Positions 1-38,656 of a DNA stretch of 39,723 nucleotides are shown piece by piece. This DNA comes from a virus: UHGV virus genome UHGV-0092790; one strand, written 5' to 3'. Made by a program: the position numbers and the translations under genes. The notes below the pieces were generated by a model that was not told where the DNA came from, ran no database searches, and worked only from the letters and a program-made list of their open reading frames with translations. Positions within the stretch are counted from its first letter, which is position 1, and every line of letters starts with the position of its first letter.

Positions 1-6
1 GATTGC

Positions 7-78
7 TCTTTCATTGGTTCTTTCTTTTGCTCTTTCATTGGTTCTTTCTTTTGCTCTTTCATTGGTTCTTTCTTTTGC
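7..78. repeat. 3 perfect tandem copies of a 24-bp unit (tctttcattggttctttcttttgc) at the window edge
   Basis: Read directly from the sequence: 7-30, 31-54 and 55-78 are identical. On the minus strand the unit translates in one frame as AKERTNER and in another as QKKEPMKE, which contains an ATG. The array may extend beyond position 1. Confidence 0.9.
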
Positions 79-166
79 TTTTCAAAATCCTAATGCGAAC
101 ATCAGGCTAAAGTAGATCAGTAGTCCAAAAATAATTATAATCGCATCGATAATTATTTTTTGAATT

Positions 167-1423
167 TTATTTTTTATATTCTTCATATTTCTTTATGAGT
201 TTTTTTAGATGTTCGGTTCTAGCGTTCTTTATTAGATAGTTCTGCAAAAACAATCTAATATTTATTAAATCGGCTTTATATAGATTTTGTTCTTCAACTG
301 AATATTTATAAATATGATAACAAAAATCTAAAATGGATTTTATAGCAACAGAATCAACAGTACCTTTTCCGCGCCTAAATTCTACCGTTTTATTGTTTGT
401 GAAATTTAGTTCAAGGTATCTTGAGTCGCAATAAGGTTGAAATATTTTTTCCAACCCTAATTCTGATGCCGCACTTGGATGGACGCCATACTCCATTAGT
501 CTTCGTATTTGCGGATCTGCTATGCAGTACCCTCCATTTTCCCTTCCAAAAAGTTCAGTAATAAAATCATACGGAAAACAGTAAAATGCCTTTTTTAGCA
601 AAATACAAACTTTTTTATTAAAATTAATTTTAGACAAATGTATGTGAAATCCTGTTTCTGTAGCCTTTTGCGAATAACAAGAAAAGCGAGGCATGAAATC
701 TTTTGTTAATATGTCAATTCCTCCTCCTTCTTTAATGAGTTCGTCGAAAGTCATTGGAATTGTCGTTATTTCTGCACCGCCTTTCTCATCAGAAAGGCTT
801 CCGTCATGCTGAATGTAAAAGAAATTTGATGTATTATTAAAAATGTATTTATTTCGTGCATATATTTCTAGCTCCAATCCAACAAGCGGTTCTTTTAGAA
901 CATCATTGTTAGGCTTGGACCATTCACTAGGAAAATAGTGATAATTTCTCATCTGCGTCGATATAAAAACATTTGGAATGTCTGGATGTTCAAAAACATC
1001 TTTGTCAAAATTCAAGGTAGGGATGACATATTCTGTGAGATATTCGATGTTGTGCTCATTTAGTCTTTCCCATAAAATATTTTCTACGAAAAAACTTAGG
1101 ACTTTCACATATTCCTTGGAATATGTTTTATATAAAAATAAATCAGGCGTTAGATTTATTTTATTTTTCAACAGTTTATTTAGTTTAATCATATCAGAAT
1201 TTTTGATTAGTCTAATGTTTTTTTTCCCGTAAACACACCCTCTAAAATTTCTCTCTCCGATATATTTCAAGAAAGCTGTTGTTTTTCTTCTAGCCTTTGC
1301 CAAGAATGCCGCATCGATATTTTTGTACGATGCGTTAGAATATTCTTTATTGAGAATTTCTTTGTAATTTTTTCTAACAAAAGCGAATAATAGTTCCAAA
1401 GATTTTTTTTCTTTTGCGTTCAT
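167..1423 (-). CDS. carboxylate-amine ligase (glutamine-synthetase-like amidoligase; GCS2/YbdK-like or Amidoligase_2-like)
   Basis: A 418-aa ORF carries an E-x-E beta-strand motif (PLVGLELEIYA) followed by a G-x-H-x-H motif (TGFHIHLS). These have the order and style of the two signature motifs of E. coli YbdK (FTLGIELEMQVV ... GQHVHVG). Called from motifs only, with no search. Confidence 0.5.
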   Translation of the reverse strand: MNAKEKKSLELLFAFVRKNYKEILNKEYSNASYKNIDAAFLAKARRKTTAFLKYIGERNFRGCVYGKKNIRLIKNSDMIKLNKLLKNKINLTPDLFLYKTYSKEYVKVLSFFVENILWERLNEHNIEYLTEYVIPTLNFDKDVFEHPDIPNVFISTQMRNYHYFPSEWSKPNNDVLKEPLVGLELEIYARNKYIFNNTSNFFYIQHDGSLSDEKGGAEITTIPMTFDELIKEGGGIDILTKDFMPRFSCYSQKATETGFHIHLSKINFNKKVCILLKKAFYCFPYDFITELFGRENGGYCIADPQIRRLMEYGVHPSAASELGLEKIFQPYCDSRYLELNFTNNKTVEFRRGKGTVDSVAIKSILDFCYHIYKYSVEEQNLYKADLINIRLFLQNYLIKNARTEHLKKLIKKYEEYKK

Positions 1424-1427
1424 TGTT

Positions 1428-2003
1428 TTAAAAAATAATACGGTTGTTGTTGTTTTTGTTGTTTATTCTAGAATAAACTTCCCACAATTCTTCCACATGT
1501 TGTCGTGAATCGTGAAGTTTTAGGAAAAGTTCTTGTGACAAATTTATGAGTATTCCTTGTTTATTAAGATTTGTTGCACAATGTCGATAATATTTTAGCG
1601 CTAACTCCTTGTTAGAGGTGAAGCAACGTGTGTGTGGATAGCAAGATTTTAAACTAGTTCTTCCGTATTCTGGAAAATGTCCTAGAACTTGCTTTGTTTT
1701 GTATTCATACCAGTTGACAGGCTTAACTCCGACAAATAGGAAGCCTACATTGGGTCCGCCTCCAGTTTTACGCATTACAGGGATATATCCCAGCGTGTTA
1801 TCTTTTATTGTGTTAGGTGTTATATATTTTTCTATAATTTCGCCTGTTCTAGTATTTTCTAGTTCTAGAAAATATTTAATACTGATTGATTTTTTTAAAA
1901 ATTCAATCATCTTTTCGTTGTTTTCACTTTCTAACATAGTAGATACTAAAGGTGTTTTATTTCTACAAGTTAGATACATTTTAATTATATACATTGTATT
2001 CAT
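1428..2003 (-). CDS. hypothetical protein (191 aa), co-oriented with and 4 bp upstream of the amidoligase gene
   Basis: An uninterrupted ORF tightly packed against its neighbours in a minus-strand operon. It has a Gly-rich segment (RKTGGGPNVGFLFVG) and no recognisable family. Confidence 0.45.
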   Translation of the reverse strand: MNTMYIIKMYLTCRNKTPLVSTMLESENNEKMIEFLKKSISIKYFLELENTRTGEIIEKYITPNTIKDNTLGYIPVMRKTGGGPNVGFLFVGVKPVNWYEYKTKQVLGHFPEYGRTSLKSCYPHTRCFTSNKELALKYYRHCATNLNKQGILINLSQELFLKLHDSRQHVEELWEVYSRINNKNNNNRIIF

Positions 2004-2038
2004 TTTTTTTGTTTTTCTTATCCATTAAATAAAAAGTT

Positions 2039-2503
2039 TTATAGTTCTTTAAAAAGTAGTTGCGTATGTAGAATGTCCATTTTTTGTTTTTCTTCTCCTG
2101 TTTCGAGAAAAATCTTTAAATCAAGTTCAATGTTGTTTTTTAATAAACTAATATTTAGTTTATTGTCAACAGAATCAAGACCTAATGCAAAAGCGTCATG
2201 TTTATTATAAATTTCTTTTTTAAGTTCTGGGTAGGTGTAAATTACGAGTTCTTTTTTTATTAGTTTTGATAATGATCCGTAAATTAGCAATCCTTTAAAA
2301 TTCAATCCTTCAAACTCATCACGGAAAGTAAATCGATTCCCATGTCTTACAAAAATCAACGAATCTGGTTTTTGTAATTGTAGCCTCATTGCGGCTTTAA
2401 TAAATCCGAAAGAATAACCCTTTTTACAAACGCAGTATAAAAAGTTTTCCCCTTTTATTATTTTTGATACTTTGCCAAGAAAAAAGTCAATATCTCTTTT
2501 CAT
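2039..2503 (-). CDS. hypothetical protein (154 aa). It carries an internal LIYGSLSK segment with a weak resemblance to the YGSL/YGTL motif of gamma-glutamyl cyclotransferase (AIG2-like) proteins
   Basis: The ORF sits in the operon. The motif resemblance is weak and the motif is not N-terminal as it is in canonical GGCT proteins. Confidence 0.4.
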   Translation of the reverse strand: MKRDIDFFLGKVSKIIKGENFLYCVCKKGYSFGFIKAAMRLQLQKPDSLIFVRHGNRFTFRDEFEGLNFKGLLIYGSLSKLIKKELVIYTYPELKKEIYNKHDAFALGLDSVDNKLNISLLKNNIELDLKIFLETGEEKQKMDILHTQLLFKEL

Positions 2504-2786
2504 TTAGTTCTAATGTTTTAAAATTAAACCTATATTCTTTATTTTCCATTAGCGGGCATTTCCGAAAATCGCTAATCAAATCGCCTTCCGGACGGCTTTC
2601 TATCCTGAAAATCAATCTCCTAGGGTGCTTGTTTGCGATAAAAACTTCGACGATTGAACCTATCCTCCAATCACTCTTTATTGCGGAAAAAAAGCACCTT
2701 AACCCATGATTGAAATTTAGATACAATACAGGAAAGATCCGCCTTTCTTCATGCGGGTTTTCGAACTCAAATTGATAAACTTTCAT
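2487..2786 (-). CDS. hypothetical protein (99 aa)
   Basis: An ORF in the same-strand operon that overlaps the downstream gene by 17 bp. Confidence 0.4.
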   Translation of the reverse strand: MKVYQFEFENPHEERRIFPVLYLNFNHGLRCFFSAIKSDWRIGSIVEVFIANKHPRRLIFRIESRPEGDLISDFRKCPLMENKEYRFNFKTLELNEKRY

Positions 2787-2789
2787 TTC

Positions 2790-3119
2790 TTAAAAAGAAG
2801 AATAATTGATAAGTACTTCTTGCGGTAAAATGACTTTAGATTGGAATGATATTCCAATAATCGGCAATATTGTTTTTACCTCTTTATCAACTCTAAAAGC
2901 TTTTTTCTTCATGAGGCAAATATAGGAAAACTCTTCAAATCCAGCATCAATTAGCATGCATTTAAGCATTTCTCTTTCAAAAAAACCACACATTGGCTTT
3001 TTAAGCTCATAAATAATTTCATCTTCCTTTGTTTCTCCTAGTTTTCTTTTTATATTTATTTTTGTTTTTTGGCGCAAAAAACAACTTAAACAACCGTATG
3101 TATCAATTATTTTTTTCAT
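2790..3119 (-). CDS. hypothetical protein (109 aa)
   Basis: An ORF whose end overlaps the upstream gene by 4 bp (ATGA-type coupling). Confidence 0.45.
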   Translation of the reverse strand: MKKIIDTYGCLSCFLRQKTKINIKRKLGETKEDEIIYELKKPMCGFFEREMLKCMLIDAGFEEFSYICLMKKKAFRVDKEVKTILPIIGISFQSKVILPQEVLINYSSF

Positions 3120-3415
3120 TTTGAGAAAATATAAGTTTCGGATTTGTGGTAAGTGTGTGAATATCGTACCGTTTCCGCATATCTATTTCTATACGTAAAA
3201 ATATCACTCACTGGTTTTTTTTTTCTTTTTAAGTCTTCAATATGTTTAAATTCAGGCAAAGTGAATATATTAAAAATTCCTTTCAAAATATCTTTTTTTT
3301 CACGTTTTTTGAAAATTCCTATAAAAAATGTTTGTTTGTTTTTCAGTGTGGCAATGAGGCAAAACTCATCATTTTTGATGTGGTTCCAAATCTCGACTGT
3401 ATATTCCGTTTTCAT
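3116..3415 (-). CDS. hypothetical protein (99 aa), Lys-rich
   Basis: An ORF in the minus-strand operon. Confidence 0.45.
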   Translation of the reverse strand: MKTEYTVEIWNHIKNDEFCLIATLKNKQTFFIGIFKKREKKDILKGIFNIFTLPEFKHIEDLKRKKKPVSDIFTYRNRYAETVRYSHTYHKSETYIFSK

Positions 3416-3455
3416 TGCATGTTATAATTGATATAATAAAAAAGTTCACTAGGAG

Positions 3456-3692
3456 TTAATCGATCAAGGAGAAGACGAGTTGAGCACGCTCTCCCTTTTT
3501 GAAAAAAACACGTCCGGGAATATGTAAAAATACTCCGAATCTGTATTCATAAAAATAACAAGTTGCCTTTTCTAGCATTTTTGCCATTTCTTCACTGCAT
3601 CCTGTTTGTGCGTAATCGCTCAAACCCCCTAGCATGCGTTTCCGCACGTTTTTCAGTGTGGGATTCCTTGTTTCCTCTTTGTTGTATCTCAT
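3456..3692 (-). CDS. hypothetical protein (78 aa), first gene of the minus-strand block
   Basis: An ORF adjacent to the divergent intergenic region. Confidence 0.35.
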   Translation of the reverse strand: MRYNKEETRNPTLKNVRKRMLGGLSDYAQTGCSEEMAKMLEKATCYFYEYRFGVFLHIPGRVFFKKGERAQLVFSLID

Positions 3693-3739
3693 TGTTTTTT
3701 TGTTTTGTTAAATAATAAGTTTTCCTTTAATGCTAAAAG

Positions 3740-4065
3740 CCGTTGTATAGTTCCCTCTTTCGTTTATCTCTCTTATTGCCTTTCGCTTCAACGGCAATAC
3801 CTCGAAAAACGGATATCTTTCTTTCTCTTTTCCTTGTGTTCCTTTCATGCCTTTATAATATCTTTTTTCTCTCATTTGTCAATAGCTTTTTATTATTTTT
3901 TTCTCTCATGAACGTCTTTTTTTTCTCTCCCTCCCTCTCTCTTCCTCTCTTCCCTTTTGTCTTCCTTTTTCCTTCGGGGGGGGCCTTTGGGGGGGGGTTA
4001 CGCTCCCTCTTCCTCCCTGTTTCTTCTCCCTCTTTCTCGCGGCGGGGGTTTTGTTGGGTGTAATG
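3740..4065. repeat. polypyrimidine (CT-rich) low-complexity tract on the plus strand, ending in poly-G runs (G8 at 3976-3983 and G9 at 3989-3997)
   Basis: Read directly: ctctccctccctctctcttcctctcttccc ... ttcggggggggcctttgggggggggtta. The ORFs called here (3743-4063 on plus, 3853-4137 and 3998-4324 on minus) translate to low-complexity polypeptides. Confidence 0.85.
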
Positions 4066-4849
4066 GATAATCACGTCGAACGGGACTAACCAGCTTGCCC
4101 TCCCTCCTCCTAAATCCTCCTCCCTCCTGGCGATCAAATGAGTTCATCATTGGATTTTTCGAAAAAAAGGCCATTTCCTGGCATTTTGGCGTAAGTCGTT
4201 GATAAAGTGTGCGCTTAGCTAGGACGGGAAAACCCCTAATGCTTGTTGACAGATTTTCAATTTTGTGCATTCCCGGTTGCCGCATTGTCAAGCTTGCCTC
4301 TAAAAAAGCGGGCAAGGGCGGCAACCCTCAAGTACCAAGTTGCGGTTACTATTCCGCTTGACGAGGGCGATTTTTGCACCGTTATCGGTAAAACGCAACA
4401 GTTTTTTTTAGTGGAGCGTGCGCTTCCTGCGTGTAATCTTCATAACTCATTGATACTCTATCATACTTCGCATAACACACATAATGCCAAATCGAGGGCC
4501 ATAGAGGTCGACCTTGAATAACGCACTGCAAGCCACCTAGCACGCGCCGCATTTCCCGGACGATATGTGTATCGGCTCACCTCTCAAAAGGCCCGTACAA
4601 GCCAACCTCGCAAGCCGTTTTTCGGGCAAATCGTAGTAATTAGAATAATTATTGAGGTTTTGCCCACTTTAGGCCATGTTGCGGCGTTGCTTCGGAGCCA
4701 CCTAGCCATGAGGGACTGCAAGCCCGTCAGCACCGCACCACCCCTAGGTGCTTGGTGTGCTGCCATGCCATACAGGGGGCGCCGGGGAAAAGTCGCGGGT
4801 GTTTTGCGCTGGACAAAGAAGGTATCACGCAGTGTAATAGGAAAAAAAG
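4066..4849. other. about 0.8 kb ORF-free core of the divergent intergenic region, roughly 50% GC. It is a candidate replication origin, packaging site or promoter region
   Basis: No ORF of 110 aa or longer lies here. The region sits between a minus-strand block on the left and a plus-strand block on the right, immediately upstream of the lysis and terminase genes. Confidence 0.4.
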
Positions 4850-5003
4850 AAAAAGAGAAAGGAGAAAACGTAGTTTGTTAGAGAAAAAGGAAAAAATAGT
4901 ATGTATAAAGAGAAAAGGAAGTTGATATGAGAGAAGAAGAGGGAAGAGGAAGAAAGAAAGAATAAAAAAGAAAGAAAGAAGGAGAAAGGAGAAGAAGAGA
5001 GAG
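4850..5003. repeat. polypurine (GA-rich) low-complexity tract on the plus strand, mirroring the CT tract at 3740-4065
   Basis: Read directly: ggaaaaaaagaaaaagagaaaggagaaaacg ... aagaaagaaagaaggagaaaggagaagaagagagag. Confidence 0.85.
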
Positions 5004-5438
5004 ATGACGGGAAAAGAGCAGATGGAAGAGTTGTGTAAGGAGTTGAGAGAAGAGCTTAGGAGTGGAGTGATAAGGGGATTGGGAGAGGGATTAGCGAGGC
5101 GAGGGATGAGTCAGGCGATATTCAAGCGGATGGGAGGGCCGGAGGTATGGGCGAGGGTGAGCAAAGGAAGAGAGAGAAGAGAAGGAGGAGAGGGGAAAAA
5201 GGAGGAAGAGGGAGAGTTGAAGAAGGGAGAGCTGTGTGAGTTTTTAAGCAGGGTGATAAGAGGTGGGGAGCTAGGGATGAGTGGGAAGGAGAAGATGAGT
5301 GCTGTGGGGTTGTACATGAGGTTGAAGGGGTGGGACAAGGTGAAGGAGAAGGAGGAAGAGATGGTAGGGGAAGAGTTGGTAGAGCTGTTAGGAGGGAGAA
5401 AGGGAGTCGGAGAGAAGAATGATACGGAGGAAGGTTGA
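5004..5438 (+). CDS. hypothetical E/K/G/R-rich low-complexity protein (144 aa). It may be an artefact of the T-depleted strand
   Basis: The ORF lies on a purine-rich strand where stop codons are depleted. Some segments are not low-complexity (AIFKRMGGPEVWARV, LYMRLKGWDKV). Confidence 0.25.
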   Translation: MTGKEQMEELCKELREELRSGVIRGLGEGLARRGMSQAIFKRMGGPEVWARVSKGRERREGGEGKKEEEGELKKGELCEFLSRVIRGGELGMSGKEKMSAVGLYMRLKGWDKVKEKEEEMVGEELVELLGGRKGVGEKNDTEEG

Positions 5439-5473
5439 CAGAGGGAATAAGGATGAAATAAAGTAAAGACGGA

Positions 5474-6181
5474 ATGAGAAAGAACAGCGAAGGCGAGCTA
5501 AGAGTGAGGAGAGCGGAGGCGGAGCGAGGATTTCTGGCAGGGGTGAAGGAGATGGTGAAGATGAGAGCAGAGATGGGAGTGATGCCGTGGGGGAAGCATG
5601 TATTTTATCCAAGGATGTTGCACAAGGCGAGGCCGCAGAAGGTGAGTGATTTTTTAGTAGATGATGAGAGGTGGTATTTGAGTGTGAGGGAGGAGGATAT
5701 GGAGAAATGGTGTAGTAAGCATCATTTGAACCGGAGTGCTAGTGGGAAGTATTATTTGGGTTTATTGTTTAAGAGTACAAAATCGAGGAGTGTGAGGAGG
5801 AAGATAAGCCTTGGGACGAAAGACGAGGAGGTAGCGAAAGAGCGGAGGGAGTTGTTTTATGAGGAGTGGGAAGGGAAGCATCTGACATGGGCGCAATGTG
5901 AGGGAGCGAAGTGGAACATGAAGGTGTCTGGGTGTGCGGCGATAGGGAGCAAGAGTGCGTTGGAGAGGAAGGCGAGGGAGAAGCAGGAGAAGGCGAACCG
6001 GGAACAGGCTAAGGCAATATGCAAGGAGTTGGCATTAAAGCGAAAGGCGCAGGTAAAACTGGAAGGATTTAAAAAGAAGACGGAAGAGTTAAAGAGGAGG
6101 AGGGTGTTGATGGTAGGAGGTGTAGAGAAAATAGGAGACGCCGTAGTAAGGAGGACGAAGAGAAAAGGAGTGGAAAGGTAA
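5474..6181 (+). CDS. hypothetical basic protein (235 aa) with a K/R/E-rich C-terminus
   Basis: The ORF's N-terminal half is not low-complexity (HVFYPRMLHKARPQKVSDFLVDDERWYLSV ... SGKYYLGLLFKSTKSRSVRRKISLGTKDEEVAKERRELF). It uses the same purine-rich codons as the confident amidase and terminase genes downstream. Confidence 0.35.
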   Translation: MRKNSEGELRVRRAEAERGFLAGVKEMVKMRAEMGVMPWGKHVFYPRMLHKARPQKVSDFLVDDERWYLSVREEDMEKWCSKHHLNRSASGKYYLGLLFKSTKSRSVRRKISLGTKDEEVAKERRELFYEEWEGKHLTWAQCEGAKWNMKVSGCAAIGSKSALERKAREKQEKANREQAKAICKELALKRKAQVKLEGFKKKTEELKRRRVLMVGGVEKIGDAVVRRTKRKGVER

Positions 6182-6186
6182 AAGCT

Positions 6187-6387
6187 ATGAAAGAAAAAGA
6201 AGTAGGAATAATGGTAAAAGAGAAGAAGGAAGGAGGGTTGGAACTGCATTTGTTTCCGAGCAAGGAGGCAATGGCAAGGTGGCGAGGGGAGGACAGCGAG
6301 CATGACGTAGAGGGGCGGTATCAGGAGTGGGTATTGCCAGTAGAGGTATTGGAAGACCTTTGGGCGGCGGCGCAAGGGGAAGAGTAA
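6187..6387 (+). CDS. hypothetical small protein (66 aa)
   Basis: An ORF on the purine-rich strand. Support is weak. Confidence 0.2.
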   Translation: MKEKEVGIMVKEKKEGGLELHLFPSKEAMARWRGEDSEHDVEGRYQEWVLPVEVLEDLWAAAQGEE

Positions 6388-6519
6388 AGTTTTTTTAAAA
6401 CGTCCGGTGCAAGTGGCATCCTCAAATAACAAACAAACAATAGAAGTTGGGTGGAGGCGAGGAGGCGTGGTGCGCGAACCGCTACGTCCCGGACGGCCTA
6501 TGCCCAGCAAAGGGAAAGT

Positions 6520-7080
6520 ATGAAAATAATCGTAGATATAGGGCATGCCCGGAAGACGGGAGCGGAAGGGAATGGATTGGAAGAGCATGAGGTATCATGC
6601 GTAGTAGCGGGCTATCTGGTGGAAGAGTTGGGAAAACTTGGCCATGAGGTATTGGAGTTGGACTTTCCGAGGATGAGCAATGCGGCAGACTTGAACGAAA
6701 CGATAAAGGCGGCGAATGCGTCTGGGTACGAGGCAGGAGTATCGTTGCATTGCGACAGCGCCAGTAAAATTGTAGGAGGCAAGGAGGTATTGAATCCGGA
6801 GCCTCATGGGGCGCATGTATGCTTTTATCCGAGTAGCGTAAAAGGGGCACGGCTGGCGAGTGCGATAGCAGGAGAGCTGTGTGTATTGTTGCCGGGGAGG
6901 GCAAACAAAGTGCAGGGGCGAGCGAACCTTGCGATATTGAGGAAAACGAAGATGCCGTTTGTATTGTGTGAGTGTGGATTTATAAGCAACCCGGAGGACG
7001 CAGAGGTGATGAGGAGGCGGCCAAAGGAAATAGCGGAAGCAATAGCGAAAGGAGTGGACGCCTATGCGAGAGGAAAGTGA
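6520..7080 (+). CDS. N-acetylmuramoyl-L-alanine amidase (Amidase_3 family), the probable endolysin
   Basis: From the internal Met, the protein reads MKIIVDIGHA...GAEGNGLEEHE...VSLHCDS...LCECGFISNPEDAE. These match the Zn-binding His/Glu/His and the C-terminal E-x-GF-ISN signature of Amidase_3 cell-wall amidases. I moved the start from the track's 6451 to the ATG at 6520. Confidence 0.8.
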   Translation: MKIIVDIGHARKTGAEGNGLEEHEVSCVVAGYLVEELGKLGHEVLELDFPRMSNAADLNETIKAANASGYEAGVSLHCDSASKIVGGKEVLNPEPHGAHVCFYPSSVKGARLASAIAGELCVLLPGRANKVQGRANLAILRKTKMPFVLCECGFISNPEDAEVMRRRPKEIAEAIAKGVDAYARGK

Positions 7081-7474
7081 GGAGGCAATGGACAAAGAGG
7101 CAGTAGGAGAGTTTGTTGACAGCATCGTAATGGCCCCCGAAAGGGGAGGTGTTGACGAGAAGGCAGAGGGATTTGTGTGGGTATTGAGGAGCAAGAACAA
7201 GTTTTTGGTAAGGGAGGGGAAGAAGGACAGGAGTGGGCAAAGGTGGAAGCGGAAGCCTGAATACGCTTACATGTACTACCGAGGGATGATGGCAGGAGGG
7301 GTGCAGAAGGAAGCATCGTGCCTGTTATCGGAGGCGAAGGTGTTTGACCTGCCGTTGCCTAGGAGGAAGTATAACACGGAGGTTTGGGATGTTGTGAGGT
7401 GCAGGCTTATTGAGGAGGCAGTAGAGGAACCGATATATAGCGAAGCGGAAGCGTTGATAAAGTTTAACCGTTAG
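7064..7474 (+). CDS. putative terminase small subunit (136 aa), called from position only
   Basis: A small acidic and basic protein immediately upstream of the large terminase, ending 3 bp before it. It has no diagnostic motif. Confidence 0.3.
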   Translation: MREESEEAMDKEAVGEFVDSIVMAPERGGVDEKAEGFVWVLRSKNKFLVREGKKDRSGQRWKRKPEYAYMYYRGMMAGGVQKEASCLLSEAKVFDLPLPRRKYNTEVWDVVRCRLIEEAVEEPIYSEAEALIKFNR

Positions 7475-7476
7475 TT

Positions 7477-9057
7477 ATGGAAGTAAGCGAGATAGCCAAG
7501 TTGTTGAAAGACCCGATGTGGAGGATATCGCATTTGTATGAGATAAAACTCACGGACGGGAACATCATACCATACAAGCCGAGGAAGTTTCAGGAGGAGT
7601 TGCATCGTGCGTGTTACTGTGAGGGGAAGCGTCGTTTTTTGATACCAAAGAGTAGGCGTCAGGGGTGTTCTACGGCGATAGGGGTGATGATGGCAGACAT
7701 GGCGGCTTTTGAGGAGGGGTGGAAACTGGCGTTGGTGGACAGGACGCTGGGAGACGCAAAGGAAAAGCTGACGGACATTGTGAAGGTAGCCTTGGACAGT
7801 TTGAAGCGGAAATTACCGGGGTTGTTTGAGATAAGCTATTTCCAGTCCCGCATCATAGTGAAGATGACAGGGAGGAGGGCCAGCGAGATAGTTGGCGGTA
7901 AATATTTCCGAGGTAGTGGACTTGGTTTTGCCCACATATCAGAGCTTGGTACCATAGCGACGAGCGAACCGAAGCGAGCGGCAGAAATAGTAAACGGCAC
8001 ATTCCCTGCGGCCAAGGACGGCTTTATATTCGTAGAGACGACGGTACGAGGGGGGAAGCGAGGGGTATTCTACGAAAACGTAATGAATGCGTTGAGCGTG
8101 CCGGAGGAGGAGCGTGGGGATAAAGATTTCCATGTGGTATTTTTGCCGTGGTGGAGTGACGAGAATAATATATCGGAGGGGGTGGAGGAGATAACGCCAG
8201 CTACGGAGAGCTACTTTGAGACGCTTAGGAGCAAGAGCGGGATTGTCGTGACGGAGGCGCAAAAGCGTTGGTGGCAACAGGCCAAGAGGCAACACGGGGT
8301 GTCAATGAATGAGGAATACCCTTCGACCTTGGAAGAGGCTTTTGAGGTTCCGATGGAGGGGGCCATATTGGAGGCGGTGTTGGACAAGGCAGTACAGGAG
8401 GGTGCTTTTCGGAAGTTGGCCTATGACGCAACAAAGCCATGCTATTGCACATGGGACTTGGGAGCGCCGCTGAACACGATTAACCTTGTATTCCAGCTGG
8501 ACGGCCCCTTTATTAACGTCCTTGAGCTGGACAGTGGTTTGCATGCGAGCGAGCGCGTAGCAGAGCGTGTAACGAGGCTTAAAAGCAAATATCCGACCTT
8601 ACAGGCGAACTTCCTTCCGCATGACGGCGGGTATATGACGGACACAGGGATGACACAGGCGCAAATGTGGCAGGAGGCAGGGTTGCCGGGCATCCAGTTG
8701 TTGCCCAAATCGAAAGACAAATGGATTGGCATCAATTACCTTTTAGGGATGTTCAACATGTTTCGGTTTGACACCAACGGTACGAGCAAAGCGTACAGTT
8801 ACTGGTTGTCCTACAGGTGCAAGCCGGAGGTGGGAGAGGGAGGCGTGTTTAAGAATGAGATTGTACATGACAACGCATCCCATTGGGCAGACCCGTTGAG
8901 GTATGTAGCGGAGGCGAAAATGAACAATTTGCTTGTGCAAGGTCCAACAACCCAAGACTATAAGGCAGGAATAACATGTACATTTGGGAAATATCATCGT
9001 GAGCGAAACATTGGACATAACTGGCGAGGACGGTTTGAGCGTACTTTCCGAATCTGA
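7477..9057 (+). CDS. terL: terminase large subunit
   Basis: A 526-aa protein with a Walker A box (PKSRRQGCST) of the terminase type [KR]-x-RQ-x-G-x-S/T. Its C-terminal RNase-H-like nuclease segment carries acidic motifs (CTWDLG ... LPHDGG ... WADPLRY). Its size and its position upstream of a portal-sized gene fit. Confidence 0.85.
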   Translation: MEVSEIAKLLKDPMWRISHLYEIKLTDGNIIPYKPRKFQEELHRACYCEGKRRFLIPKSRRQGCSTAIGVMMADMAAFEEGWKLALVDRTLGDAKEKLTDIVKVALDSLKRKLPGLFEISYFQSRIIVKMTGRRASEIVGGKYFRGSGLGFAHISELGTIATSEPKRAAEIVNGTFPAAKDGFIFVETTVRGGKRGVFYENVMNALSVPEEERGDKDFHVVFLPWWSDENNISEGVEEITPATESYFETLRSKSGIVVTEAQKRWWQQAKRQHGVSMNEEYPSTLEEAFEVPMEGAILEAVLDKAVQEGAFRKLAYDATKPCYCTWDLGAPLNTINLVFQLDGPFINVLELDSGLHASERVAERVTRLKSKYPTLQANFLPHDGGYMTDTGMTQAQMWQEAGLPGIQLLPKSKDKWIGINYLLGMFNMFRFDTNGTSKAYSYWLSYRCKPEVGEGGVFKNEIVHDNASHWADPLRYVAEAKMNNLLVQGPTTQDYKAGITCTFGKYHRERNIGHNWRGRFERTFRI

Positions 9058-9727: not shown

Positions 9728-11353
9728 ATGTTGTACAACAACCAGAGTCCAAAGCAGAAGAGGGAGCAACTCTATTCGTACAGACAGAGATATGTGTCTA
9801 ACTGGCAACGAGTTGCGGAGTTTGTAGAGCCAGACAGGCGGTTTAACCTGAATGGAGCTGTACAGGAATCCACACCTAATAATGAGGGATATATTGACAC
9901 GACTCTTGAGCGTGCGTTGAGGCTGAACGCAACAGGCCAGCATGAGCTTGTGATGCCCAAGGCTAGTGAGTGGTTCACCTTTACGCCCTTGGCGAAAGCG
10001 GCAGACAGGGAGCTGGTGACAAGCACTGTTGACAACGAATATGCCGAGACGGCTAGGGTTGTGTCCATGTTCATGAGGAACAGCAACCTGCACACGGCAA
10101 GCGAGCTTTTCTTCTGGGACAGGGCGGCTTATGGCATTGGCGCTTTTTGGGCAGAGTGGGACACAAGGAAGCGAGGTTTTAGCTTTTATTCAATTCCCGT
10201 TGGGACATTCATGGTGGACAAAGATAAATTTGGCCGGATGAATATGTTCTGTTGGGACGACTGGATGCGAAACCAAGACATTGTGGCTACGTTTCCTGAG
10301 GGCAACTTGCCGCAAACTGTTAAGGATAAGTATATTGCAAACTCCAACAGTCCGGACAACTACCTTGTGTTCCACTTGTTGGAGCGAGTGGAGCGCACAG
10401 GAGATGAAGGACTTGTGAGGCGAGCCAAAGGAAAAGAGTGGGTGCTTCGTTCGGTGTATGACGCTACAGGAGACGTATTGCTTGAGCAATTCTTTGAGCA
10501 ATGCCCCGTTATCTGTTGCAACTGTTTTGATTTGCCTAACTCCCCGTATGGATATGGGTTTGGGAAGGTTTCATTGGCAGACCAGATTGAATTGGTTAAT
10601 TGCCTTAAGGCTTTGGCAGAGGCGGCCCAACAGAAGATTTTCCCGCCGATGCTTGTTCCGGAAGGATTTCAGGGCAATATCGGATATGGAGCGGGCGAGG
10701 TAACGACCTTTAACCCGTTGAACATTCAGGCAAGGCCGTCGCCCCTGTTCCAGCAGTCAGCCCAAACTTCCGATACCCAATGGCAAATTGAGCGTTTTGA
10801 GCGTGTCATCAATGAGGCGTGCGACGTTAATTTGTTCATGCCGCTGTTGCAGGTGAAGGACCCGCAATACATGAAGGCCACAGTAGCGCAGATGATTGAG
10901 TCTTATTCGGCACGCATCAGCTCTACGGCTTATACGAGGTTGATTGAGCAATTCCTGCAACCCTTGGTGGACTTTTGCTACAACACGCTGGTGCAACATG
11001 GTTATGTCCGTCCTTTGAGGGATTACCATATCCAGTTCTGCACGCCGTTCCAGATTCTTTTGGACAGGCATCAGCCGACGTTGTTCACAGAGTTCCTACA
11101 AACGGTAGTCATTCCTCTTTCACAAATCGACCCGACCGTTCTGGACTCTGTGGATGCTGACTATATTTTCCGAAGGAGCATGCTTGATATTGGCCTGTCG
11201 CCCAAGTATTCTAGGCCGGAGGCGAAGGTGCAACAGATGAGGAGAGAACGCCAAGCGGCTCAAGACGAGGCAAACCAGATGGCTAATGCCAAGACATTCT
11301 CGGAAGTGCAGAAGAATCTTGGAGCGGCCAGTAAAGACATGAATCTGATTTAA
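9728..11353 (+). CDS. putative portal protein (541 aa)
   Basis: Size and position, directly downstream of terL and upstream of the scaffold-like and coat-like genes. No motif check was possible. Confidence 0.45.
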   Translation: MLYNNQSPKQKREQLYSYRQRYVSNWQRVAEFVEPDRRFNLNGAVQESTPNNEGYIDTTLERALRLNATGQHELVMPKASEWFTFTPLAKAADRELVTSTVDNEYAETARVVSMFMRNSNLHTASELFFWDRAAYGIGAFWAEWDTRKRGFSFYSIPVGTFMVDKDKFGRMNMFCWDDWMRNQDIVATFPEGNLPQTVKDKYIANSNSPDNYLVFHLLERVERTGDEGLVRRAKGKEWVLRSVYDATGDVLLEQFFEQCPVICCNCFDLPNSPYGYGFGKVSLADQIELVNCLKALAEAAQQKIFPPMLVPEGFQGNIGYGAGEVTTFNPLNIQARPSPLFQQSAQTSDTQWQIERFERVINEACDVNLFMPLLQVKDPQYMKATVAQMIESYSARISSTAYTRLIEQFLQPLVDFCYNTLVQHGYVRPLRDYHIQFCTPFQILLDRHQPTLFTEFLQTVVIPLSQIDPTVLDSVDADYIFRRSMLDIGLSPKYSRPEAKVQQMRRERQAAQDEANQMANAKTFSEVQKNLGAASKDMNLI

Positions 11354-12984: not shown

Positions 12985-13977
12985 ATGGCAAATTACGGAA
13001 ACTTCCAGACGCTTGCTGTAAACGAGTACACGCCCATGATTTATGCGGCTGTTCAGCAGATGCGTTCCCGCACGGAGCGTTTCATGAGGGTTTACGGCAT
13101 GAATTCCAGACAGCGCAGGTTCCAAATCATTGACCCTGTGAACTCCACTCAAATCACCGACCTGTATGGCGCGACTAACCCGCAACAGGCCGAGTTCAGA
13201 CAGCGGTGGCTCAAGACCAAAATCTTCAAGTCCACTCATGAGATTTCCCGCACGGAAATGCAACAGGCAGGGACTATTGACTCTCCGCTTCCCCGCATTG
13301 TGGACGCAGAGCGCATGGAAATGCAGCGTCGCCGTGACTTGGTGGCGGTTGAGGGCCTTATTGGTACTGCGTGGACTGGCGAGAACGGCGACATCCCCGT
13401 TGCCTTCAACGAAAAGGCCAACACGATTCCTGTTGGCTACGTGCAGAGCGGAACCTATGTGGCATCCGGTCTGACCTTTGACAAGATTGTGCGGGCCAAG
13501 ACTATCTTCGGCATGCGCAACGTGCTTGGTCAGGACGTGGAACGTCAGGATTTGGGTGGCCCTGAAATGGTAATCCTTTGTACCCATGAAGAGCTTGCGG
13601 CTCTCTACGGCATCAAGGAATTCACGAACATCCTTTACTCCGACCAGCGTCCGATTGCCAGCGGCTACATTGACAACGTGCTTGGCGTGCGTTTCATTGC
13701 GCTGACTGCGGACATGCTTCCGTTCGGTTCCCGTCCGCTTGGCTCTGCGACCGACCCGACCGGTGGTTCATCCACGGCGAATGTGCGAACCCTCATTGCC
13801 TTCACGATGAACTCCGTTGCGTTTGGCGTGCTGGAAGAGCTGTTCGTTCGGATTGAAGAACTTCCGACCAACCAGTATGTATGGCAGACGTACTCTGAAA
13901 TCGCAATGGGTGCGACCCGAATCGAAGACAAGGGCGTGCTCAAGATTGACGTGGCGGGTTCTTCCGGCAACTTCTAA
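12985..13977 (+). CDS. putative major capsid protein (330 aa)
   Basis: Position after the scaffold candidate. The upstream region is flanked by tandem terminators and probably carries a strong late promoter. The size is typical of an HK97-fold coat protein. Confidence 0.45.
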   Translation: MANYGNFQTLAVNEYTPMIYAAVQQMRSRTERFMRVYGMNSRQRRFQIIDPVNSTQITDLYGATNPQQAEFRQRWLKTKIFKSTHEISRTEMQQAGTIDSPLPRIVDAERMEMQRRRDLVAVEGLIGTAWTGENGDIPVAFNEKANTIPVGYVQSGTYVASGLTFDKIVRAKTIFGMRNVLGQDVERQDLGGPEMVILCTHEELAALYGIKEFTNILYSDQRPIASGYIDNVLGVRFIALTADMLPFGSRPLGSATDPTGGSSTANVRTLIAFTMNSVAFGVLEELFVRIEELPTNQYVWQTYSEIAMGATRIEDKGVLKIDVAGSSGNF

Positions 13978-18200: not shown

Positions 18201-19527
18201 CATGGAGGATAGTAATCCCTGTGTAGATTTATTCTCCACGGGGAGTACGACCGATTCAGACGCGCTTAATACAGGGGGATTTGACCCGATGAGATGGGAT
18301 TTATTCTCCACGGGGAGTACGACCGATTCAGACGCGCTTAATACAATTCTAGTCAATGGGTACTTCAAAGAAACGACTAGTAGTGAACAAGTTACGATTC
18401 AGACAAAACCAGCTGACACTCAATCCTGGGCATCAAAATTTTATTTTACCTTCGATGACGCTTCTGTTTTCAATAATCCGGCGGCTAATGGTAGCTCTGT
18501 TGAGATAACAGCATTCCTTTTTGAGAATCAATATGACCCTTCTCTAAGCCAATTACCCAAGGGGCCGTTTTATTTGTTTGTGTACGATTCAGAGACACAA
18601 GCATTATTAGCTCGCTCAAACAACTCGGTAGAGCTTCCTGACGATAAGAACCAGCTTCCTATTCTTGAGTTCCTGTTTAGCGGATTAACTGTAAACGCTA
18701 ACCAGAAAATAAAGGTTTTCTTCTCAAGCAATGAATCAGCCTCCTTTGAAGGGAATGAAGAAATATTACAGGTTTCCTGTTTTAGTGATTCTACCCATGA
18801 GACGGAATACGGATATTTCCCGTATATGGATGTCCGCACAACTGTATTGAATTCCAAGATTGAATATGACGAAACCAAGCCTGTTTATCTGGATGTCATA
18901 TCGGCAGTTGGTGAAACGACAACAGGTTATTGCTTTGGCGGGAATGATATAAATAATAATTATTCTTATTATCGTCCATCACCAGAAGGGGAAGGCTTTT
19001 TTTCCCAAAGCAAAATTGTGTTCAATGTTACAGGAGAAATTGAATCGCAAAAAGGGGAAGTCCCAAACGCTGGATTTGTTGGTAGCCCAACTTCGTTGAC
19101 CAGTGTTTTCCCTAACTTCGTTTTCGGGCTTCACATCTTTTCAGAGTTTGTGTCGATGCCGATGGGGAATGCTAACAATTACGTCATCCCGGCAACCACC
19201 ACCAAGATTAGCCAACTGCGCTATCAAGTATCACGGGATGAGGGCAACGACGTAACTCCTTCATCTTCATTTCTTAGTGATGACGGTCTGGCTTATGGTG
19301 CGCCAAGGATTCAGGCCACAGTTCAGGCATTGGACTATGATGCCCCGATAGCTATGGAAAAGAGCACTTCCATGTCGGTATCAACAAACTTGTCTAACGG
19401 GAGAGACCATATTGTATTGAGTGGACAAAGCTCTACAGATACAAGACTGTACTTTTCCTTAGATGATGCTAAAAAGGTGAACGTATTAGCGGCGTATATT
19501 CTGTATGATTCCACTATCATTAGCTGA
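15235..19527 (+). CDS. large tail protein (1430 aa), a candidate nozzle, tailspike or receptor-binding protein
   Basis: A very long ORF in the structural module. It is rich in Gly, Ser, Thr and Asn and contains a perfect internal tandem duplication (see the repeat at 18226-18345). Confidence 0.5.
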   Translation: MASNTRQFQMQLNFNGGQVSENFTPRVDMQKYQTSCSVIRNFIPRQFGMLKRRPGFGFVDSFKNPFRILKFPCTNNEEYIVCVHSDNKYESGGCKPFATIYQCGYFGDQTRRWEVNLDIDPVFMPGVNGWTADSSSERHGRFWDTDLAKIKYVSQNDKMWIVHPDFFPLELTRTAKPVQLQQTSMAEDKYVVEFDTSSNTNLSTKNSLCFGLYGVNRLNAKTQPFFTLNFKDNKSIAFGFSGSGADTKWAITTSDGVVHQLENIGVSSDQTVDFSDFNKNTPINIYCFLTWRGNKLYASIGCNNSYGTLGLYKYSSSEVEVDSSLGNLLSFVIGGTPGSSTDAQSYVSFKETFSAGSDFSGIGIKVNFGQGDVPDKSFNNNDHRTSLIMAQMFGDTSSVFKLNDYQIQQYNNSVFPIKRIYESGTNIYTEETVIEFKLTTMDFLNYPKSDDYYIRDKSQGTNPDSPMFCRNHETCPDIPYYVYEDTSFPLNTINAVFGDRYFLSDGSVPQLTGNDGTQIAEWLKEYTPGDIVIGSCLMNKTDGVLNGNIYNFSTGSNVGIPINFFRMANIVCRYVRGDWTLRTDAEVATNKGVLVSYLENSKVFSGYPSGGGYTVFRINNNWFSQPRKLSMSGSNTPGVFVGLVYIGENGTVSTDTGDAGQSIEVDNSSGAYHTDIPFSVWPNQKRLTSTTTDATVFQNLTIMPLMYAPVLDVIFENFSSNFGRGNYQITQTNISATNYYSAKFNDLVKCAFSVEKGYPSCISLRNGRLILASTKSQPQTIWASRVDRYNEFSVDDMADSGWDLTIGANQSQKIQWLSSSKDLIVGTDIGEWVLNDSDSSNPVPIIKEQSRWGSSVAQGELMTESLFFIPRDKKGVIQTIYSFQIDGYTAEDVTIMASDLFDYGITSHSIQKDPDPIWWGTTGDGRLLGLLYNRVQDINGWFQCDIQGCDINQVCCYNNTVKGEEGLAVSIQGEGGSNLVNANQYFLAFMEDSNPCVDLFSTGSTTDSDALNTGGFDPMRWDLFSTGSTTDSDALNTILVNGYFKETTSSEQVTIQTKPADTQSWASKFYFTFDDASVFNNPAANGSSVEITAFLFENQYDPSLSQLPKGPFYLFVYDSETQALLARSNNSVELPDDKNQLPILEFLFSGLTVNANQKIKVFFSSNESASFEGNEEILQVSCFSDSTHETEYGYFPYMDVRTTVLNSKIEYDETKPVYLDVISAVGETTTGYCFGGNDINNNYSYYRPSPEGEGFFSQSKIVFNVTGEIESQKGEVPNAGFVGSPTSLTSVFPNFVFGLHIFSEFVSMPMGNANNYVIPATTTKISQLRYQVSRDEGNDVTPSSSFLSDDGLAYGAPRIQATVQALDYDAPIAMEKSTSMSVSTNLSNGRDHIVLSGQSSTDTRLYFSLDDAKKVNVLAAYILYDSTIIS
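18226..18345 (+). repeat. perfect 48-bp direct repeat (18226-18273 and 18298-18345) with a 72-bp period, inside the 1430-aa gene
   Basis: Read directly: gatttattctccacggggagtacgaccgattcagacgcgcttaataca occurs twice. It encodes DLFSTGSTTDSDALNT twice, 24 aa apart. Confidence 0.9.
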
Positions 19528-20416
19528 CACAGGCGGCCTAACCGCAGATGGTTTGTTGCCATTGACAGGCTTCCCCTCATGGATGTGGGGAAGCGACATT
19601 CTTAATGGTCAACTCTGGGGTGGAACAGAAATAGCAGAGCCAGCTTACAACGAAATTTGGACAGACCCTACGACTGGTGTTACGAATGCGCTCCTACCTT
19701 CGTTGACTGGATTGGAGCCAATGAACGGCCTGTATGATATTGATTATCAGATAGGTTATCCTGAAATGCCCCAGCCGCCGACATATAACCCTAACACAAG
19801 TTATTTATCATCAACGGCTTCAATAGATACGTCAGCTGGGTTCGAGAAGTCTAGTCCCAACAAAATAGCATGGGATGACACGTTTGACCCGTTCGGCTTC
19901 AACTCTGCAACGCTTAAAGGATTTGGTAGTGTTCTTTCGGATGTATCGTCTTCCTTGAGCAAGAAGAGGACATATGCCAACTATGTCGCCAGTTATGAGA
20001 ATCGGGCACAGGCGTTAAGGAATCAAGCCGAGTCAGCATACAGGATTGCCGGAATAAACATGTCTCGCCTTCGAGGGAATCAGGCGAAATACCTAGCCCA
20101 GCAAAGGGTGTCAGCAGTCAGGACAGGCTTCGCCCCGACTTCCGGTTCCATAGGCGCTGTACAACAGGCGACAATGAGCCAGTTCGAGCAACAAATAGCT
20201 GATGCTTGGGTGGAAGCGGAACAAAAGAGGCAGAACACAATGTATCAAGCAAGCGTTGCTGATTGGCGGGCAAGCGAAGCCCGGAAGGCTAGCAAGCGCT
20301 CATCCGGTGGATTCCTTGGCTCGCTACTTGGCTCTGGTGTGGGAGCTTATTTTGGAGGCCCCACCGGAATGGCGATAGGTTCTAAGATAGGTTCATCCAT
20401 AGGAGGGTTATTTTAA
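19505..20416 (+). CDS. putative internal virion or ejection protein (303 aa) with a C-terminal glycine zipper
   Basis: The C-terminus reads SSGGFLGSLLGSGVGAYFGGPTGMAIGSKIGSSIGGLF. Its position between the large tail protein and two further large proteins parallels T7 gp14 and P22 gp7. The true start may lie downstream of 19505, which overlaps the preceding gene. Confidence 0.4.
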   Translation: MIPLSLADTGGLTADGLLPLTGFPSWMWGSDILNGQLWGGTEIAEPAYNEIWTDPTTGVTNALLPSLTGLEPMNGLYDIDYQIGYPEMPQPPTYNPNTSYLSSTASIDTSAGFEKSSPNKIAWDDTFDPFGFNSATLKGFGSVLSDVSSSLSKKRTYANYVASYENRAQALRNQAESAYRIAGINMSRLRGNQAKYLAQQRVSAVRTGFAPTSGSIGAVQQATMSQFEQQIADAWVEAEQKRQNTMYQASVADWRASEARKASKRSSGGFLGSLLGSGVGAYFGGPTGMAIGSKIGSSIGGLF

Positions 20417-20418
20417 TC

Positions 20419-22371: not shown

Positions 22372-22378
22372 ACAAATC

Positions 22379-29359: not shown

Positions 29360-29363
29360 TAGT

Positions 29364-29400
29364 CCCCTCCCCCGATTTCGGGGGGGGGCATAACTTTTTT
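29364..29400 (+). terminator. rho-independent terminator
   Basis: cccctcccccgatttcggggggggg is followed by cataactttttt. Confidence 0.7.
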
Positions 29401-33600: not shown

Positions 33601-33954
33601 TCAGCCAAAAAAGAAATCATCTATTTTCTCCAACTCCATTTTAGACAAGGGAGCCTGTTTGTGGTAAGCGGAAATCCCCGCCCGTCTTGTCCTTCGGGGG
33701 TTTATCAGGTTAAGAGGAATACATCTCTTGGTTTTAAAGTCTTTTCTGTATAGCTCTGCCCGGCGTTGAAAGTGTTTGCTGGCCGCTAAACAAAAGTCCA
33801 TAGCCTTGATTTTATTCCCCCTCAAAGTGTCCTTGATGAACATGTTAGGCGTATAATGGTATCTCTTGAGGAGCTTCCTTAGTCTCACTCCTTTAGCGTA
33901 ACCTCCGAGAACGTTATAAAACTGTTTATCGGTAAGCTTGTTTATGTATAGCAT
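33601..33954 (-). CDS. hypothetical basic protein (117 aa)
   Basis: The last gene of the minus-strand module. It converges on the preceding plus-strand gene. Confidence 0.4.
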   Translation of the reverse strand: MLYINKLTDKQFYNVLGGYAKGVRLRKLLKRYHYTPNMFIKDTLRGNKIKAMDFCLAASKHFQRRAELYRKDFKTKRCIPLNLINPRRTRRAGISAYHKQAPLSKMELEKIDDFFFG

Positions 33955-33959
33955 GCCTA

Positions 33960-36594: not shown

Positions 36595-36658
36595 CTTCTG
36601 GCTCCCAATCTACATACGCCTCAAACTCATAATCCATACAATGTTAGACAGTAGATGT

Positions 36659-37579: not shown

Positions 37580-37600
37580 AACATGTGGTACAAAAACGAC

Positions 37601-37987: not shown

Positions 37988-37996
37988 AATAAGGAT

Positions 37997-38629: not shown

Positions 38630-38656
38630 TGTTCCCTTAACCACCAGAAAATAAAA

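Follow-up and report, generated by a model that had tools for sequence, protein, structure and literature searches.

A divergent promoter hub and a cytosine-depleted operon head in UHGV-0092790, a probable Akkermansia phage, and their possible relation to Rho

UHGV virus genome UHGV-0092790 (39,723 nucleotides (nt); the whole stretch is called the window) is a podovirus-like phage of about 40 kb (39.7 kb) that looks nearly complete. This report concerns its region 3740-5003, called the hub, and the cytosine-depleted head of the operon that starts there. Leftward genes occupy 167-3692 and 33601-39412, and rightward genes 5004-33597. The hub is the point at which the leftward early and accessory block and the rightward lysis, terminase and structural block diverge; an earlier note on this DNA had placed it at such a divergence, and the gene orientations agree. 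The rightward operon is 29 kb long and is read in the order first gene, lysis, terminase, structural genes. Relatives are designated by L numbers and fall into clades by identity of the large terminase (TerL): 93-97% (with subclades), 65% (L013-L016 and L018) and 67% (L032).

Leftward (early) transcription would be served by a sigma-70-type promoter at 3882-3855 on the minus strand (TTGACA, 16-nt spacer, TATTAT; 11 of 12 matches by scan), with an A/T-rich, UP-like stretch immediately upstream of it (3886-3910 on the plus strand). This promoter was invariant in alignment A1 and was conserved with minor variants in all clades inspected, its equivalents being TTGACG-17-TAAATT in L032 and TTGACA-16-TAGAAT in L047 and L048. 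A candidate promoter for the rightward (late) operon was read from the sequence at 4810-4838 on the plus strand (TGGACA at 4810-4815, N17, TGTAAT at 4833-4838; 5/6 matches in each hexamer). It is conserved in the alignments and adjoins the cytosine-free tract, and its transcription start is predicted at about 4845. The -10 hexamer is CATAAT in L008 and L010, and L048 has TAGACA-17-TATAAA, giving the form T(G/A)GACA-N17-(TGTAAT/CATAAT/TATAAA), a candidate that is weaker than consensus; L008 and L048 have a better -10 hexamer than the window. The suggestion that the region is a promoter hub was borne out by this pair, a conserved leftward promoter and a conserved rightward candidate.

The mirrored CT and GA tracts that had been described on the two sides of the hub were confirmed by composition counts. 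In total, 276 windows of 50 nt were at least 86% purine or pyrimidine, whereas block shuffles that preserve composition had 3.5 on average and 30 at most. The CT-rich side had been drawn from 3740 to 4065, ending in runs of eight and nine G; the tracts and runs are present, but the proper CT-rich sequence begins only at about 3886, and 3740-3885 is the transcribed start of the leftward operon together with its promoter. The polypyrimidine tract proper (3886-3975) is 91% pyrimidine and 3% G on the plus strand. Because it lies upstream of the leftward promoter, it is not transcribed from it, and a search for a convincing leftward promoter to the right of the tract identified none. In relatives the composition of the tract is kept while its sequence and length vary freely (320 nt in L032). 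It is followed on the plus strand by G8 (3976-3983), CCTTT and G9 (3989-3997), the only canonical G-quadruplex motif (four runs of at least three G, loops of 1-7 nt) in the whole window, so that the predicted G-rich structure holds at the level of a motif; the opposite strand would have i-motif potential. A pair of such runs, 7-10 G long, was found in L001, L002, L004, L005, L008, L010, L011 and L047, that is, in every covering relative of the window's own lineage (close group, L008-L010 subclade and L047); L048 and both 65-67% TerL clades are without it. Several contigs break just to the right of the pair, and in practice the poly-G runs break assemblies at the hub. A second CT-rich segment (3998-4065, 72% pyrimidine) includes the protospacer of an Akkermansia spacer at 4027-4047.

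The sequence from 4066 to 4838 is balanced (52% pyrimidine, about 50% guanine plus cytosine (GC)), and within it the conserved core (4066-4809, about 750 nt, about 50% GC) contains no conserved open reading frame (ORF), in agreement with the gene-free core reported before. No Rfam family was found in the core at gathering scores, and relaxed scores gave three weak matches (E 2.9-4.5) far below threshold; a tRNA scan gave nothing meaningful. Folding of the core on either strand was no better than that of shuffles (z-scores -0.06 and +1.16), and the consensus fold of the promoter-proximal block was weak (-2.75 kcal/mol). Two blocks stand out by conservation. Block A (4435-4492) carries five short (C/G)ATA(A)(C/T) repeats at 4441, 4452, 4462, 4471 and 4480, which are 9-11 nt apart and in helical phase; it is near-invariant over four subclades while its flanks diverge, and is a candidate protein-binding array. 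Block B (4624-4665) contains an invariant AT-rich 16-mer, AATTAGAATAATTATT, at 4638-4653, flanked by the inverted repeat GGGCAAA/TTTGCCC. In L047 the inverted repeat is changed on both sides (GCTCAA/TTGAGC), the one clear compensatory example. A core segment of about 110 nt (window 4640-4740; alignment A1 columns 1560-1690) has two alleles of unrelated sequence, which are distributed in shuffled fashion over otherwise close genomes. The window shares its form with L008 and L010, and L052 is recombinant. This two-allele pattern points to frequent recombination within the hub.

The purine leader of the rightward operon was taken as 4839-5003 on the plus strand (A 59, G 31, T 10, C 1%; 90% purine). 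C occurs once between 4831 and 5007, at 4869, and for the last time ahead of the tract at 4830. Strains differ in the spacing between -35 hexamer and ATG (32 to 243 nt); the leader is purine-rich in strains of the window's type and in L032, and is nearly absent in L048. The leaders of L001 (5415-5435), L002, L004, L005, L011, L017 and L050 contain (C)CTATAG(G/A/T)GAGA, a motif similar to the start region of T7-type promoters (TATAGGGAGA); the window leader is without it, and a phage RNA polymerase gene was not found. In L032 a complete unit of pyrimidine tract, short core and purine tract (L032:4537-5290) lies upstream of the leftward promoter, and a leftward cassette (5294-6726) stands between that unit and the late promoter. 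No rightward genes follow its purine tract, which ends at a hairpin that would terminate leftward transcription.

The GA-rich right side was found to be real, but its end at 5003, as given in the earlier note, was not: purine-rich sequence continues as a C-depleted zone to about 8-10 kb. On the plus strand, C stands at 32% in 4701-4800 (about 30% before), and drops abruptly to 0-8% from 4831. As far as about 6400 it does not exceed about 10%; values of 13-18% follow until about 8400, and about 22% is attained near 10.5 kb. Depletion is thus strongest in the first 1.5 kb and fades over 4-5 kb, and GC skew peaks at 0.71 (5-6 kb). The core of the depleted head (4831-7927, plus strand) contains no 78-nt window with more C than G over 3.1 kb; the first such window after 4847 is at 7928, and the corresponding stretch in relatives is 1.9-3.7 kb long. 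Coding sequence follows the same gradient. Third-position C is 4, 6, 7, 13, 15 and 18% in successive genes and up to 34-37% in the capsid gene, third-position G declines from 58% to about 30% along the operon, and the share of residues that need C in their codons (P, T, A, H, Q) climbs from 6% to 25-30%. The endolysin and terminase genes lie inside the zone. The ratio of nonsynonymous to synonymous polymorphism (pN/pS) was 0.27-0.49 for the uncharacterised ORFs in the zone and 0.41 for the amidase endolysin; the genes of the C-poor zone are real and under purifying selection.

The first gene (5004-5438, plus strand) encodes a protein of 144 amino acids (aa) that has a helix-turn-helix-like domain at its N terminus and carries a conserved GKEKMSAVGLYMRLKGW motif. 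Every clade keeps the gene intact as the opening gene of the operon, with 34-42% identity to the most distant clades, and none of its 122 database homologues has a functional annotation. Searches of Pfam and of PHROG profiles gave no match for it, and Foldseek gave no PDB match for an AlphaFold model of mediocre quality (predicted local distance difference test (pLDDT) 68). Gene callers lengthen this gene by 26-60 codons (proteins P0001-P0044), through the purine leader and even into the core (MLPCHTGGAGEK...), because the leader has no stop codons, and database entries for the protein are often too long at the N terminus. The suspicion that the low-complexity ORFs here are artefacts was right within the tracts and core, where short indels, some of a single base, run through the ORFs in relatives and the core blocks are invariant at every position, not codon-like; from 5004 on it was wrong, as ORF 5004-5438 and its neighbours are conserved genes. 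The outcome that would have spoken against the earlier interpretation, a tract that proves to be a translated gene region, was thus borne out by half: the purine-rich sequence continues into these genes.

The abrupt drop in C and the gradient are common to the 93-97%, 65% and 67% TerL clades, despite differing genes before TerL; in the 65% and 67% clades the drop starts only about 1.0-1.3 kb before TerL. Relatives at 25-30% identity showed neither drop nor gradient. In the 65% clade, L016 and L018 have a second, leftward C-depleted unit (L016:4680-5700, minus strand; L018:5560-6500). In L016 it starts abruptly after a terminator hairpin and a TTGACA, has 2-11% C for about 1 kb and then rises, and its leader of about 550 nt is without a long ORF; no homology was found between its genes and the early genes of the window. 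The feature therefore belongs to the 5' ends of transcription units and not to one unique site. The window head (4847-6400) is G+A-rich (A36 C7 G41 T16), and the L016 head is G+T-rich (A29 C5 G40 T27). The conserved variable is low C together with high G on the sense strand. The sense strand of the head is 65-92% purine, and the purine-rich transcribed strand of the earlier note holds in the sense that the sense strand is purine-rich on both sides of the hub.

Substitutions were polarised within the 97% group, with the 93-94% subclade as outgroup. C>T changes per C numbered 0.071 in the head and 0.079-0.084 downstream. Gains of C per non-C site were 0.009 in the head against 0.019 and 0.035 downstream, roughly four-fold lower. 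The equilibrium C calculated from the substitution rates (8%, 12%, 20%) agrees with the observed C. Overall, the pattern indicates that new C is selected against, rather than that C is lost faster by deamination. Had the composition been a neutral by-product of transcription-associated mutation, the displaced non-template strand would lose C by deamination near a strong promoter, and the asymmetry does follow the direction of transcription and decay with distance from the start. Deamination would, however, enrich T, and the window head has little T (16%) and is rich in A; the rate of C>T per C is not raised in the head, whose composition is held by the lower gain of C; depletion sets in sharply, as a step, where transcription is predicted to start; and the amino-acid composition of conserved proteins is shifted too. 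Mutation bias was rejected on the substitution spectrum and the T-poverty and is considered very improbable. Three other candidates were dropped. Avoidance of palindromes or restriction sites in the first-entering DNA gave 26 versus 45 per kb in the window head, but L016 and L032 have 40-44, and it is not a conserved property. Avoidance of a protospacer-adjacent motif (PAM) was dropped by reasoning, as GAA, the complement of the type I-C TTC PAM, is abundant. A G-quadruplex-rich head was rejected, with no canonical motif besides the G8/G9 pair.

Mirror symmetry of the tracts had been noted before in composition, which stands; true mirrors at the level of sequence were also found, at 4099-4127 and at about 4927-5001. 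The former is a perfect homopyrimidine mirror repeat of 29 nt (CCTCCCTCCTCCTA-A-ATCCTCCTCCCTCC; arms 14, spacer 1), pyrimidine except for a central TAAAT, with its purine strand on the minus strand, facing outward to the left. Shuffled sequence gave 0.1 repeats of this kind per window. Of 12 close relatives, 10 carry it unchanged, and an eleventh differs at the centre base only; L047 has a C4x4 i-motif/G-quadruplex motif in its place. The homopurine mirror repeat (4927-5001, plus strand) matches at 34 of 38 mirrored positions, is about 95% purine over its full length and ends in the Shine-Dalgarno region of the first gene. Its perfect core (4944-4986; arms 19, spacer 5) is all purine but for one T. 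The mirror is perfect over 71 nt in L002, L004, L005 and L017 and over 77 nt in L001, with arms of 35-38 in these five, whereas no shuffle of this purine-rich sequence had an arm longer than 12. It is not a clean tandem repeat (69-79% matches). In L051 a symmetric deletion has shortened it, and what is left is again a perfect mirror, of 32 nt; the L001 mirror was lengthened by changes on both flanks.

Several strains are without the purine mirror and the leader is hypervariable, and the element is therefore dispensable at the family level. Each mirror has its purine strand facing outward, as the sense strand of the divergent unit on its side. Both mirrors have the features by which H-DNA motifs are recognised (homopurine/homopyrimidine; mirror arms of about 10 nt or more, short spacer), and the H-DNA proposed in the earlier note is thus supported as genuine mirror repeats at motif level. 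Mirror symmetry of a homopurine tract is a requirement for an intramolecular triplex, and we know of no other constraint that would maintain it. The symmetry appears to be maintained, and formation of a triplex is suggested by it; the mirrors could act as a supercoil-dependent modulator, a recombination hotspot or a protein site. Like published H-DNA motifs (PMC11667243, PMC12214015), both elements are homopurine/homopyrimidine and mirror-symmetric and are of typical length or above (29 nt, and 71-77 nt in relatives). The purine mirror differs from them in not being a clean tandem repeat, in standing in a phage 5' leader and in having a symmetric deletion derivative. Perfect non-tandem mirrors of 71-77 nt offer a natural bacterial-virus system for asking whether H-DNA functions.

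The hub is tentatively read as a divergent promoter region whose sense transcripts begin in a C-free head that is proof against Rho, an account to which somewhat less than an even chance is given. An excess of C over G and YC dimers (Y, pyrimidine) are experimentally validated predictors of Rho-dependent termination, and templates free of C>G windows were without Rho signals (PMC6144790); a rho gene is drawn in the synteny maps of Akkermansiaceae (PMC13174399). Besides lacking C>G windows, the region 5-7 kb has zero runs of four YC dimers at 9-13 nt spacing, and in 3/4 heads the residual C follows a pyrimidine more rarely than expected. On this account the GA tract would be the untranslated 5' leader of the rightward operon and the start of a C-poor zone maintained by selection. 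Rho would load on about 60-80 nt of C-rich, G-poor RNA, and the message of the head would offer no such stretch. If the leader and the promoter-proximal genes are, as presumed, translated at a low level, a message without a loading stretch would escape termination there, and polarity on the 29 kb operon would be avoided. The complementary antisense RNA, C-rich and pyrimidine-rich, would be an ideal substrate for Rho, so that insulation of the hub would be directional. Three further elements (the CT tract and its G-runs, the 29-nt mirror, the purine mirror) would be clade-specific additions able to adopt non-B DNA, in or beside DNA that divergent transcription would keep negatively supercoiled. 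Involvement of Rho is suggested by composition.

Strand asymmetry of this kind is familiar from Szybalski's transcription direction rule, or purine loading, by which pyrimidine clusters lie on the template strand of phage DNA. As under that rule, the sense strand is purine-rich on both sides of the divergent promoters and the asymmetry flips with the direction of transcription. Here, in contrast, the effect is of much greater magnitude, with a GC skew of 0.7 and 0-1% C over stretches that exceed 150 nt; it has a sharp onset at the operon start and a kilobase decay, and conserves low C and high G rather than purines (L016 is G+T-rich). Phages also have devices against Rho-dependent polarity: N and Q antitermination in lambda, the put RNA of HK022 and Psu of P4. 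These address the same problem, early termination of a long phage operon, but act through a protein or a structured RNA on RNA polymerase or Rho, whereas cis-acting composition running through coding sequence is proposed here; in composition the head is just the reverse of a Rho utilisation (rut) site. No antiterminator was identified in the window, the only trace being a weak match (E 0.005) of a 103-aa zinc-ribbon-like protein (35141-35452, minus strand) to the PHROG 'anti-termination protein Q-like'. Should that match be real, the protein might load at the conserved block that precedes the purine leader.

Szybalski-type asymmetry, anti-polarity strategies and H-DNA motifs are kinds of feature already known; what stands out here, partly beyond 3740-5003, is the conserved, selection-maintained and graded C-free operon head together with the long non-tandem mirror repeats. 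A fuller proposal, that the promoter-proximal kilobases of the operons are protected from Rho without an antiterminator by a leader and first genes almost devoid of C, even at the cost of the amino-acid composition of the proteins, and that symmetry-maintained mirrors serve as supercoil-sensitive triplex elements in the leader, is held to be on the doubtful side. If true, anti-termination devices would gain a new class that works by composition alone, and bacterial viruses a rare example of an H-DNA motif with a function. A true anti-Rho device of this kind would mean that base composition alone can replace antitermination factors, reshaping protein sequences on the way. The design can be searched for in other genomes by a scan for C>G bubbles and could be reused in synthetic operons.

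Several points weigh against protection from Rho. The rightward -10 hexamer (TGTAAT) has no A at position 2 and fails the scanner rule, the -35 hexamer is not conserved in the 65-67% clades, and both transcription starts are predictions. The argument is built on rules from E. coli and Salmonella, which may not be the specificity of Akkermansia Rho. If no more than the first 3-5 kb of a 29 kb operon are protected, something further has to be assumed, either low promoter-proximal translation or internal promoters further on. The leftward early operon of the window is unprotected, the earliest C>G window lying 93 nt beyond the start predicted for it. C depletion is not a general answer to an Akkermansia host: six other viral contigs matched by Akkermansia spacers had no extreme C depletion (stretches of 1-12 kb each). 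Substitution events in the head are few (61). Finally, the same composition gives weak RNA structure and favours R-loops, and other benefits at the RNA or DNA level fit as well.

Of those benefits, weak RNA structure with purine loading would do without Rho altogether: a C-poor message forms no stable hairpins and pairs little with other RNAs, so that the leader and first genes would stay open to ribosomes and free of pause and terminator hairpins, an extreme form of Szybalski's rule. The head RNA indeed folds weakly in three clades (-0.08 to -0.13 kcal/mol per nt versus -0.23 to -0.27 downstream), and its sense strand is purine-rich to the extent given above. The region 6.4-9 kb, however, folds normally (-0.25) and is still strongly poorer in C than in G, and the shortage of C thus outlasts the low structure. 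In L016, moreover, C is replaced largely by T, which permits G-U pairing, and not by purine. Effects of RNA structure on translation starts normally extend over tens of nucleotides, not kilobases. This alternative was judged unlikely. Less likely again is a transcription-primed replication origin (R-loop or triplex), in which the G/A-rich RNA would stay hybridised to its C/T-rich template, helped by the H-DNA motif, and the displaced strand would give the host primosome a place to load, in the manner of the R-loop origins of ColE1 or phage T4. Calculated with nearest-neighbour parameters, the RNA:DNA hybrid is more stable than the duplex between 5.0 and 7.5 kb, with an advantage of 0.17-0.24 kcal/mol per step where the whole window has 0.03, and G is at least 40% for 1.5 kb (41% over 4847-6400). 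Mirror repeats are present, the core has its ultra-conserved phased array and AT-rich 16-mer, which are not diagnostic, and no RNA or DNA polymerase, helicase, primase or replication initiator was recognisable among the window genes. GC-skewed R-loop promoters (CpG islands, immunoglobulin switch regions and ColE1 RNA II) share the positive skew from the start, its downstream decay and the favourable hybrid energy. R-loop initiation zones are enriched in G clusters, however, and the head is the opposite: runs of at least three G number 47 versus 62.4 +/- 5.0 expected, runs of at least four 11 versus 25.4 +/- 3.8, and GG odds are 0.83 (the deficit has the same direction in L032; L016 is neutral). 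The region is also translated coding sequence of a bacterial virus, and translation in the gene-packed zone disfavours R-loops.

The earlier note had offered a replication origin or a packaging region as functions of the hub, and neither found specific support. The cumulative skew check that it had called for put the GC-skew minimum at the hub (about 4-4.5 kb), with the maximum at about 33.5-34 kb. An inflection at about 4.0-4.5 kb would favour an origin, but these extremes are exactly where transcription diverges and converges, and because of that coincidence they are uninformative on replication; the switch in transcription direction explains the minimum. The hub has no DnaA-box match, let alone a cluster (window: 8 versus 9.2 expected). 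The purine leader and mirror vary widely and are nearly absent in L048, and L016 has two C-depleted units. Origin function was accordingly ranked below protection from Rho. In the packaging alternative (pac, cos or a genome end), the terminase would recognise structured or bent DNA of the hub and the first gene might encode the small terminase. ORF 5004-5438 is first in the operon, 2 kb before TerL, and on this position and its helix-turn-helix-like N-terminal domain may be the small subunit. The phased repeats at 4441-4485 and the several contigs ending near the hub also speak for packaging. No profile or fold search confirmed the small-terminase assignment, however, and terminase typing against solved structures gave no sequence match. 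The contig ends are scattered over hundreds of bases, at homopolymers (poly-G) or strain-variable DNA, and one is a CRISPR (clustered regularly interspaced short palindromic repeats) chimera. Full-length contigs run through the hub and have their breaks elsewhere, at a 12-nt tandem repeat at the window start. The kilobase gradient and the second unit of L016 would also be left unexplained by a pac site, and packaging was held quite improbable, below origin function. Protection of the head transcripts from Rho was preferred because C stays below G through 6.4-9 kb, G clusters are in deficit, L016 has a second unit and the leader is dispensable.

The host is probably Akkermansia, because the CRISPR repeat of L006 matches Akkermansia genomes only and one of its spacers matches a relative of the phage in full. 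L006:1-240 (IMG/VR contig 3300008523_000162) is a type I-C-like array with the repeat GTCGCACTCCGCAAGGAGTGCGTGGATTGAAAC, fused to phage DNA at a spacer; exact matches of the repeat were found in Akkermansia genomes only. One spacer matches relative L011 at 33/33 positions, and the next runs into window 4027-4047. L006 is an assembly chimera. Blastn of the window DNA against INPHARED gave no match, and the closest cultured portals are only 21-24% identical; there is no near cultured relative. The phage family is common in human gut metagenomes, where single protein clusters have hundreds of member sequences, and its apparent host is of medical interest and without a related cultured phage.

Elsewhere on the plus strand of the window, an Amidase_3 endolysin (6451-7080) was recognised by a profile match, TerL (7477-9057) by a PHROG match only, a T7-type portal (9728-11353) by PF12236 and a capsid protein (12985-13977) by PF19821. 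Virion proteins of very large size are encoded, and the gene of one of them (1430 aa) contains a perfect 48-nt direct repeat with copies 72 nt apart (18226-18345). The minus strand encodes a PD-(D/E)XK nuclease and a RuvC-like protein. After the gene at 28571-29359, a terminator-like C/G-homopolymer hairpin followed by a T-run lies at 29355-29400 (CCCCTCCCCC-GATTTC-GGGGGGGGG), and comparable C6/G6 hairpin terminators occur in L016 and L018.

The leftward accessory and early region (1-3700 and 38000-39723) has about 30% GC, versus about 50% elsewhere, and contains weak matches to an amidoligase (167-1423) and a class-II glutamine amidotransferase (38726-39412). Relatives swap it for unrelated sequence right up to the promoter, which makes this a mosaic boundary. 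A search for terminal overlap of the window sequence found none. The window starts with a 12/24-nt tandem repeat (3-82), at which the independent assemblies L001 and L004 also break; L010 breaks at the equivalent position too, at a different repeat. Palindromes are avoided genome-wide: in 20000-28000, for example, there are 49 six-base palindromes versus 120 expected and 361 four-base palindromes versus 485.

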